Origin: Escherichia coli
GTDB lineage: Bacteria; Pseudomonadota; Gammaproteobacteria; Enterobacterales; Enterobacteriaceae
Assembly (NCBI RefSeq): GCF_003334335.1
Contig: NZ_QOWQ01000094.1
Length of the DNA stretch: 2,040 nt
Reading direction: 5' to 3' (one strand)
The position numbers were made by a program, and so were the translations under genes. Shown here one piece after another: positions 358 through 935 of this stretch. The stretch's first letter is position 1. Each line of letters opens with the position of its first letter. The notes beneath the pieces are model-generated. The model was not told where the DNA came from, ran no database searches, and was given only the letters and a program-made list of their open reading frames with translations.

Positions 358-935
358 ACACGGCGGCGGAAGCCATCCGCGCACTGTCGCTGCAGGTGCC
401 CGGATTCCGCTGTCAGATGAACGAAGGCTGGTACCAGATACGCATTGCCGGTGAGGATACGGCACCGGAGGCGGTGTATGCCCGCCTTCACGAACCACTG
501 GGTGAGGGAACGGTTATCCATATTGTGCCGCGACTGGCCGGAGCCGGAAAGGGCGGACTACAGATTGTGCTGGGGGCAGCTGCCATTGTGGGGTCTTTCT
601 TCACTGCCGGAGCATCAATGGCGTTATGGGGTTCAGCCCTGGCAGCCGGTGGTTTTTCTGCCACCACGATGCTGTTTTCACTTGGAGCCAGCATGATTCT
701 GGGCGGTGTGGCCCAGATGCTGGCCCCGAAGGCAAAAACACCGGATTACCGGGCAACGGATAACGGTAAACAGAACACGTACTTTTCCTCACTGGACAAC
801 ATGATTGCCCAGGGTAACCCGATGCCGGTGCCTTACGGGGAAATGCTGGTTGGCTCCCGCCGTATATCCCAGGACATCAGTACCCGTGATGAAGGCGGGG
901 GCGGAAAGGTGGTGGTTATTGGTCGACAGGGATAA
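255..935 (+). CDS. I: Tail assembly protein I (lambda gpI family): N-terminal ubiquitin-like region ending in a Gly-Gly, then a Gly/Ala-rich hydrophobic segment
   Basis: 226-codon ORF, ATG at 255 to TAA at 933-935. A purine-rich GGGAGAGG (236-243) lies 11 nt upstream of the ATG. The protein (MATTNAF...ARICLHGDLQRFGRR...GWYQIRIAG...VIHIVPRLAGAGKGG...GVAQMLAPKAKTP...NGKQNTYFSSLDNMIAQGN...YGEMLVGSR...GGGKVVVIGR) follows lambda gpI as I remember it along its whole length. The 103-nt out-of-frame overlap with K matches the K/I arrangement I recall in lambda. Confidence 0.9.
   Translation: MATTNAFCLASPPLARICLHGDLQRFGRRFSLYVNTAAEAIRALSLQVPGFRCQMNEGWYQIRIAGEDTAPEAVYARLHEPLGEGTVIHIVPRLAGAGKGGLQIVLGAAAIVGSFFTAGASMALWGSALAAGGFSATTMLFSLGASMILGGVAQMLAPKAKTPDYRATDNGKQNTYFSSLDNMIAQGNPMPVPYGEMLVGSRRISQDISTRDEGGGGKVVVIGRQG

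Follow-up and report, generated by a model that had tools for sequence, protein, structure and literature searches.

The window analyzed here, a stretch of 2040 bases, comes from the tail-tip module of a lambda-like Escherichia coli prophage, with the gene order K-I-(spacer)-J. Over its whole length it shares 95-96% identity with induced and Stx-converting E. coli phages; their records use the gene names K, I, and J, and PHROG profiles agree with these names. The 3′ end of K occupies positions 1-357 of the plus strand, where the frame-1 translation gives residues 130-247 and the stop codon (PHROG 30, minor tail protein). Gene I, taken from the list of open reading frames, lies at 255-935 (+) and encodes 226 amino acids followed by a stop codon; phmmer, Pfam, and PHROG (4244/32, tail assembly protein) identify it as the ortholog of the lambda tail tip assembly protein I. 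The 5′ part of J begins at 1278, after a 342-nt non-coding spacer, and runs to the end of the window (1278-2040, +). Its translation, the match to PHROG 31 (central tail fiber J, E = 6e-147), and the annotation of related phages assign it to the central tail fiber, or host specificity protein, the partner that receives the C-terminal strands of I.

K and I overlap by 103 nt (255-357) in different reading frames. In I, the shared stretch specifies the disordered residues 1-13 and the opening strands of the ubiquitin-like domain; in K, it specifies the C-terminal helix. Many distant I homologs begin straight at the first strand, at about residue 13. In several database relatives (P0005, P0006, P0008, P0175, P0192, and P0258), K and I, or L and K, form a single chain, which may reflect frameshift or gene-calling artefacts given the out-of-frame overlap. 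Natural fusions of I with J and of I with a JAB domain have been reported (Iyer et al., PMC1779556).

Gene I of this lambda-like E. coli prophage encodes tail-tip protein I, a protein of an already described kind. In a phmmer search of PDB sequences, lambda gpI (8iyk_I) matches residues 1-224 with E = 1.7e-95, while the Pfam family Lambda_tail_I (PF06805) matches residues 15-97 (E = 7.5e-15). In profile, gene position, and C-terminal domain, I is a member of the lambda tail assembly protein I family (TAPI). Lambda gpI (PDB 8IYK, 8IYL, 8K35, 8XCG, 9E7M) has the same three-part layout, sits between K and J, and shows the same 103-nt overlap with K; the IHIVPR-x-AGA motif, the hydrophobic helices, and the plug are common to both proteins. 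The linker, in contrast, reads AGAGKGGL here and AGAKSGGVF in lambda gpI, and the second hydrophobic helix of the prophage protein carries a two-residue insertion. In total, 3297 relatives of I were found among 1.84 billion cluster representatives, and conservation was counted in 84 diverse full-length relatives, each representing a cluster at 50% identity.

The initial annotation had placed GKGG at residues 98-101 of I (546-557) and a Gly/Ala-rich hydrophobic segment directly after it (558-728). Translation of the open reading frame at 255-935 confirms the first statement, and translation and hydropathy confirm the second exactly. The segment, residues 102-158, reads LQIVLGAAAIVGSFFTAGASMALWGSALAAGGFSATTMLFSLGASMILGGVAQMLAP; its 57 residues include 13 Ala, 9 Gly, 8 Leu, and 6 Ser and none that is charged. 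It is part of a 59-residue run (residues 100-158) without D, E, K, R, or H, in which Kyte-Doolittle means over 19 residues range from 0.9 to 1.7, with a maximum of 1.66. Like a membrane-inserting hairpin, the segment contains two uncharged hydrophobic helices of about 20 residues. Hydropathy, alignment with lambda, and published structures and TMHMM predictions, the latter reported for both lambda gpI and the pyocin homolog, equate them with H1 and H2 of lambda gpI, which surround the C-terminus of the tape measure within the tip. The layout cannot be put down to chance, since it is kept across the 84 diverse relatives, with G107 invariant (84/84) and G144 and G150-G151 conserved.

Alignments of 30 and of 84 relatives show the Gly-rich middle followed by a C-terminal domain (GGVAQML ... 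NTxFSxLxN ... YG), and F177, N182, G187, P191, G195, and G200 are conserved as well. Residues 159-226 (729-932, +) share about 85% identity with the gpI chains of the lambda structures 8iyk and 9e7m, which cover lambda residues 134/135-223. From the lambda alignment and the cryo-EM papers, this part of the protein (the TAPI-C part) corresponds to the plug loop and the β-strands that run between the J hub domains and are retained in the virion.

The N-terminal region of I is predicted to be a ubiquitin-like module. An AlphaFold2 model of residues 1-101, based on an alignment of 71 sequences, has a mean pLDDT of 88, with residues 11-90 at 91-97. Strands are predicted at 14-19, 29-33, 59-64, and 87-93 and helices at 37-47, 51-57, and 71-78, in the strand-strand-helix-strand-strand order of the β-grasp, and the last strand ends at R93. 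Prediction of this fold was the test that the initial annotation had named for its β-grasp reading, and since the model shows the β-grasp order, that reading stands. SAMP1, MoaD, ThiS/CysO, and Urm1 are the nearest solved folds. Residues 14-93 (294-533, +) are therefore predicted, with high confidence in the model, to form a β-grasp domain of the ThiS/MoaD branch, the placement given by Iyer, Burroughs and Aravind (2006; PMC1779556). A hydrolase role for this domain, which one cryo-EM paper touches on in a speculation about peptidoglycan, was considered and rejected because the fold is MoaD-like and not that of a hydrolase.

The proposed processing partner is encoded immediately upstream. The frame-1 part of K in the window represents the C-terminal two thirds of an NlpC/P60 (C40) domain and contains NHAAIYCGNGELLHH. 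NHAAIYCGNGELLHH holds two of the three catalytic residues of this domain, His187 (172-174) and His199 (208-210), while the JAB domain and the catalytic Cys121 are encoded upstream of the window. In the full-length K of a phage that matches the window at 95% DNA identity, Pfam places Prok-JAB at residues 3-103 (E = 8e-15) and NLPC_P60 at 111-224. The initial annotation had described gpK as a JAB/MPN and NlpC/P60 protein whose C-terminal part falls in the window, a description borne out by the Pfam matches and the catalytic residues. Because the window encodes only residues 130-247, the JAMM site was checked on the K proteins of phages in which K is about 95% identical. The JAMM residues E19, H68, H70, S78, and D81 (an E...HxH-x7-S-x2-D site) are invariant or nearly so in 41 K homologs, and the same holds for the papain-like triad C121, H187, and H199, down to about 35% identity. 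In 117 of 120 loci, distant ones included, K directly precedes I. About 25 distinct K-I pairs were gathered by single divergent queries, and an alignment-based search of viral contigs yielded near-identical E. coli prophages only.

Release of the ubiquitin-like domain of I at its C-terminal glycine by the JAB domain of K was predicted by Iyer et al. in 2006 (PMC1779556). This is the proposal that the initial annotation had cited, and it had rendered it correctly. In three cryo-EM studies of lambda, the gpI seen in the tip is confined to its C-terminal part, starting from residue 135, 101, or 134 (PMC11101478, PMC10721106, PMC12617516). There, gpI forms a trimeric plug beneath the C-terminus of the tape measure and adds strands to the gpJ sheets, and mass spectrometry detects no gpK in lambda virions (PMC11101478, PMC10721106, PMC12617516). 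Upon receptor binding the plug opens and both hydrophobic helices lose density, which two of these studies propose to reflect insertion into the outer membrane. Outer-membrane insertion of the hydrophobic helices has likewise been proposed for the pyocin homolog.

Invisibility in cryo-EM alone does not distinguish cleavage from disorder. The ubiquitin-like domain might instead stay in the virion on a flexible tether, escaping cryo-EM and perhaps acting during infection. The cryo-EM papers do call the N-terminal domain ‘unresolved’, and one of them speculates about an action on peptidoglycan; the mass spectrometry of lambda virions recovered one gpI peptide (9.9% coverage), too little to decide the matter or to indicate which part is present. 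This alternative nevertheless appears very unlikely. In the F-type pyocin, mass spectrometry detects the N-terminal region of PA0640 in tips stalled during assembly and fails to detect it in mature particles, and loss of the gpK homolog abolishes tip formation (bioRxiv 10.64898/2026.02.24.707460). Cleavage of the ubiquitin-like domain from gpI by gpK was reported at a 2025 plenary, for which a literature search returned a meeting summary only and no full paper. Furthermore, an invariant JAMM site adjoins I in nearly all loci, and the MoaD-like fold speaks against a peptidoglycan role. With the meeting report and the F-pyocin mass spectrometry at hand, the earlier remark that the biochemistry is still not well characterized is outdated.

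The F-pyocin system is informative in other respects. PA0640 (PDB 9L9P / 25VF class) is homologous to I, with profile E values of 1e-48 to 1e-50, and is paired with the gpK homolog PA0639. As in the phage system, the C-terminal part alone is seen in the particle, the N-terminal part is lost on maturation, and the gpK homolog is needed for the tip. The pyocin, however, is a tailocin and not a phage, the tail motif of PA0640 is PTGSK/VIGSK followed by GG or SG, and the authors did not name the protease that acts on it.

Protein I is very probably a three-part precursor, composed of the β-grasp domain (residues 14-93), the hydrophobic helices (102-158), and the plug with its strands (159-226), that is processed by K. 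This interpretation of I and K is the established, published one; it is supported in its core and is already known. The fold, the conservation of the motifs, the intact active sites of K, the K-I synteny, and the orthology to lambda gpI were computed here.

K contains two peptidase domains, and the NlpC/P60 domain rather than the JAB domain could cut I; alternatively, both could be needed, or the NlpC/P60 domain could process the tape measure H. The residues C121, H187, and H199 are as invariant as those of the JAMM site, the possibility was raised by Iyer et al. (PMC1779556), and, according to a lambda cryo-EM paper, the enzyme that processes gpH to gpH* has yet to be identified. Even so, such a role is distinctly unlikely, as the 2025 meeting report credits the ‘deubiquitinating domain’, and JAB domains are the ones tied to ThiS/MoaD-like proteins across bacteria (PMC1779556). 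Some prophages keep a K with the NlpC/P60 domain only, which argues for a separate role of that domain (PMC1779556).

The initial annotation had the ubiquitin-like module of I ending in GKGG. The module itself is upheld, but this end is probably not correct: the fold stops at about R93, and the conserved tail is G96-A97. After the last strand, P92 is conserved in 80/84 relatives, G96 in 80/84, and Ala or Ser at position 97 in 70/84, giving a family motif P92-x3-G96-[A/S]97 that resembles the tail of ubiquitin. Based on this conservation and on alignments, residues 94-97 (LAGA; 534-545, +) are assigned to the tail-like motif. The conserved Gly at the C-terminal end of the domain is thus G96, and it is followed by Ala or Ser, not Gly. 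GKGG, on the other hand, probably belongs to a short Gly/Lys-rich linker that varies across the family. Gly or Lys occupies position 98, P92 and G107 are 15 to 24 residues apart, and the stretch 98-102 varies in length.

Residues 98-101 have a pLDDT below 50 both in the model of residues 1-101 and in a K-I fusion. The fusion, a single-chain K-(GGGGS)6-I(1-115) construct, was modeled from a hand-built alignment of about 19 paired and 37 unpaired homologs. Both of its parts are folded (mean pLDDT 84), with residues 97-100 of I below 50; the model was evaluated by pLDDT.

Comparison with other ubiquitin-type proteins points to the same place. The profile of the I domain weakly matches CysO (4n6e_B) and a Helicobacter MoaD (3rpf_C), with G96 on their penultimate residue. 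In hhalign comparisons, G96 falls opposite G80 of E. coli MoaD, G65 of E. coli ThiS, and G75 of ubiquitin. While each of these alignments is weak by itself (E values of 0.003-1.9, hhalign probabilities below 10%), all five agree in setting G96-A97 opposite the terminal Gly-Gly of MoaD, ThiS, CysO, and ubiquitin. A97 may then be the counterpart of ubiquitin G76, with the predicted scissile bond at or next to the one between A97 and G98, an assignment from sequence comparison that we consider about as likely to be right as wrong. A cut there fits the published description of the closed lambda tail, in which gpI becomes resolved at residue 101. Since G96 is conserved family-wide and G96-A97 aligns to the terminal Gly-Gly, GKGG would more likely serve as a variable linker, or open the mature fragment, than close the ubiquitin-like module. 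The refinement of the site amounts to a probable shift of the ubiquitin-like tail end by five residues, which we hold with equally divided confidence.

The alternative put forward in the initial annotation is a cut exactly after the Gly-Gly at 100-101, so that the ubiquitin-like product ends in ...AGAGKGG and the structural fragment starts at L102. JAMM enzymes such as Rpn11, AMSH, and the Mec+ that acts on CysO do cut after Gly-Gly. A GG is found at 100-101 in both the prophage I and lambda gpI, and position 101 is Gly in 71/84 relatives. Position 100, however, is Gly in only 37/84, the length-variable stretch lacks the second glycine pair in some relatives (for example GAGKYTQIIIG and GAGNAARIIAG), and five of five ubiquitin-type alignments place the terminal GG at G96-A97. 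In addition, lambda gpI has been described from residue 101, which leaves G101 on the structural fragment. Cleavage after Gly101 is consequently unlikely, and a fragment of I ending at this residue, for which the initial annotation suggested a search by mass spectrometry, is not the best prediction because G100 is variable, the alignments favor G96, and lambda gpI is resolved from 101.

The relatives of the β-grasp domain raise a further alternative, in which the module is a true modifier or sulfur carrier like ThiS, MoaD, or SAMP that is freed and activated and then becomes attached to a target or carries sulfur. Its nearest folds are indeed SAMP1, MoaD, and Urm1, and cleavage would leave a conserved tail of small residues. 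Against such a function, no E1-like adenylating enzyme was noted in the flanks of 120 loci, which were searched explicitly for K and I only, and none is known in the lambda genome; moreover, the tail motif is G-A/S instead of G-G. A modifier role is therefore extremely improbable. The C-terminus of the ubiquitin-like part of I is internal until it is cleaved. Compared with ThiS, MoaD, CysO, SAMP, and Urm1 and their JAMM partners (CysO-Mec+, QbsE-QbsD), the I system is not known to involve an E1-like enzyme or sulfur chemistry, its tail is G-A/S rather than G-G, and its ‘extension’ is a structural protein of 130 residues that constitutes the functional product.

Processing by the JAB domain of K would proceed as follows. 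The I precursor would enter the growing tip complex together with L and J, its C-terminal strands extending the β-sheets of J, and three copies of I would close the lumen of the tube. The JAB/JAMM metalloprotease domain of K would recognize the ubiquitin-like domain of I and cut just past ...P92-R-L-A-G96-A97. Release of the ubiquitin-like module would then allow tip maturation and the attachment of tape measure and tube to proceed. The resulting virion would contain neither K nor the ubiquitin-like piece, and the retained fragment of I would begin at GKGG or a few residues off. During infection, the plug would open, and the hydrophobic helices would be freed towards the host outer membrane. 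In this scheme the literature supplies the absence of the N-terminal part from mature particles, the cut made by gpK, and the functions as a plug and at the membrane, while we infer the exact scissile bond.

Ubiquitin is also found fused to the N-terminus of structural proteins in the ribosomal precursors Ub-eL40 and Ub-eS31, where it aids or gates assembly before a deubiquitinase clips it off. These fusions work like I by analogy only, as they involve another fold clade and mostly another protease, and there is no evidence of common descent of the fusions. A counterpart to the retained part of I, in both place and role, is the plug domain of phage T5 pb3, which plugs the tube as a trimer and has hydrophobic elements proposed to reach the outer membrane. 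Unlike I, the T5 plug is an insertion in a single large hub protein, for which the literature describes neither a ubiquitin-like pro-domain nor a JAB partner.

An additional function may be imagined at the interface with host defense. Bil bacterial defense systems attach a ubiquitin-like protein to the central fiber of the phage tail. Since K, a protein of deubiquitinase type, acts at the assembly of J, and J is the fiber that Bil tags, the JAB domain of K could strip Bil-type host tags from J, or the freed I module could block them as a decoy. This idea is highly improbable.

As a locus, the window carries little weight, since its gene I is an ordinary version of a thoroughly studied lambda tail gene that is present in thousands of E. 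coli prophages. It illustrates a wider theme, in which a virus combines a ubiquitin-type domain and a deubiquitinase-type protease into a built-in assembly checkpoint, and the fragment of I that is retained serves as a plug with a possible part in breaching the outer membrane of the host. The analysis adds a single useful point, a sharper predicted cut at G96-A97, with GKGG putatively starting the mature fragment.

Downstream of I, the prophage differs from lambda in carrying the 342-nt spacer; in lambda, J follows almost directly after I. Positions 941-1023 of the minus strand (83 nt) are identical at 81/83 positions to the PasB gene of EPEC E2348/69 (NC_011601 1466261-1466343), and the published Northern probe for PasB matches positions 946-968 exactly. 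Judged by these matches, the I-J spacer encodes the known Hfq-dependent small RNA PasB. A near-consensus promoter-like site (TTCACA-16-TATAAT) is located on the minus strand at 1072-1045, and a site resembling an intrinsic terminator of PasB at about 965-942 (965-949 and a T run) on the same strand. PasB has no Rfam entry and lacks an annotation in RefSeq genomes, and an Rfam search of the spacer gave only a sub-threshold match to a streptococcal small RNA. AgvB was considered as the identity of the CA-rich minus-strand RNA of the spacer and rejected, given that it sits at the Q/PR′ moron site.

A second structured element lies between PasB and J. Positions 1093-1180 (+) fold into two strong hairpins with a z score of -6.0, the second of which is terminator-like, with a GC stem of 12 bp followed by UUUCUGUUU. 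The element is specific to the 342-nt variant of the spacer, and the 240-nt variants have a different terminator-like hairpin in this place. A moron terminator and a second small RNA are both candidates for its identity. Phage ASU11 annotates a hypothetical protein of 66 amino acids at about 1097-1297 (+) of the window, which is probably spurious because it covers the structured RNA element and extends into the beginning of J.

Of 5426 complete E. coli genomes, 1612 carry the 342-nt spacer, in up to six copies per genome and without an annotated feature. The gap between I and J is about 0-60 nt in distant phages and about 235-250, 342, 850, or 1590 nt in E. coli prophages (loci L002-L172). Because the length of the spacer varies in this way, the I-J junction behaves like a place where additional DNA is inserted.
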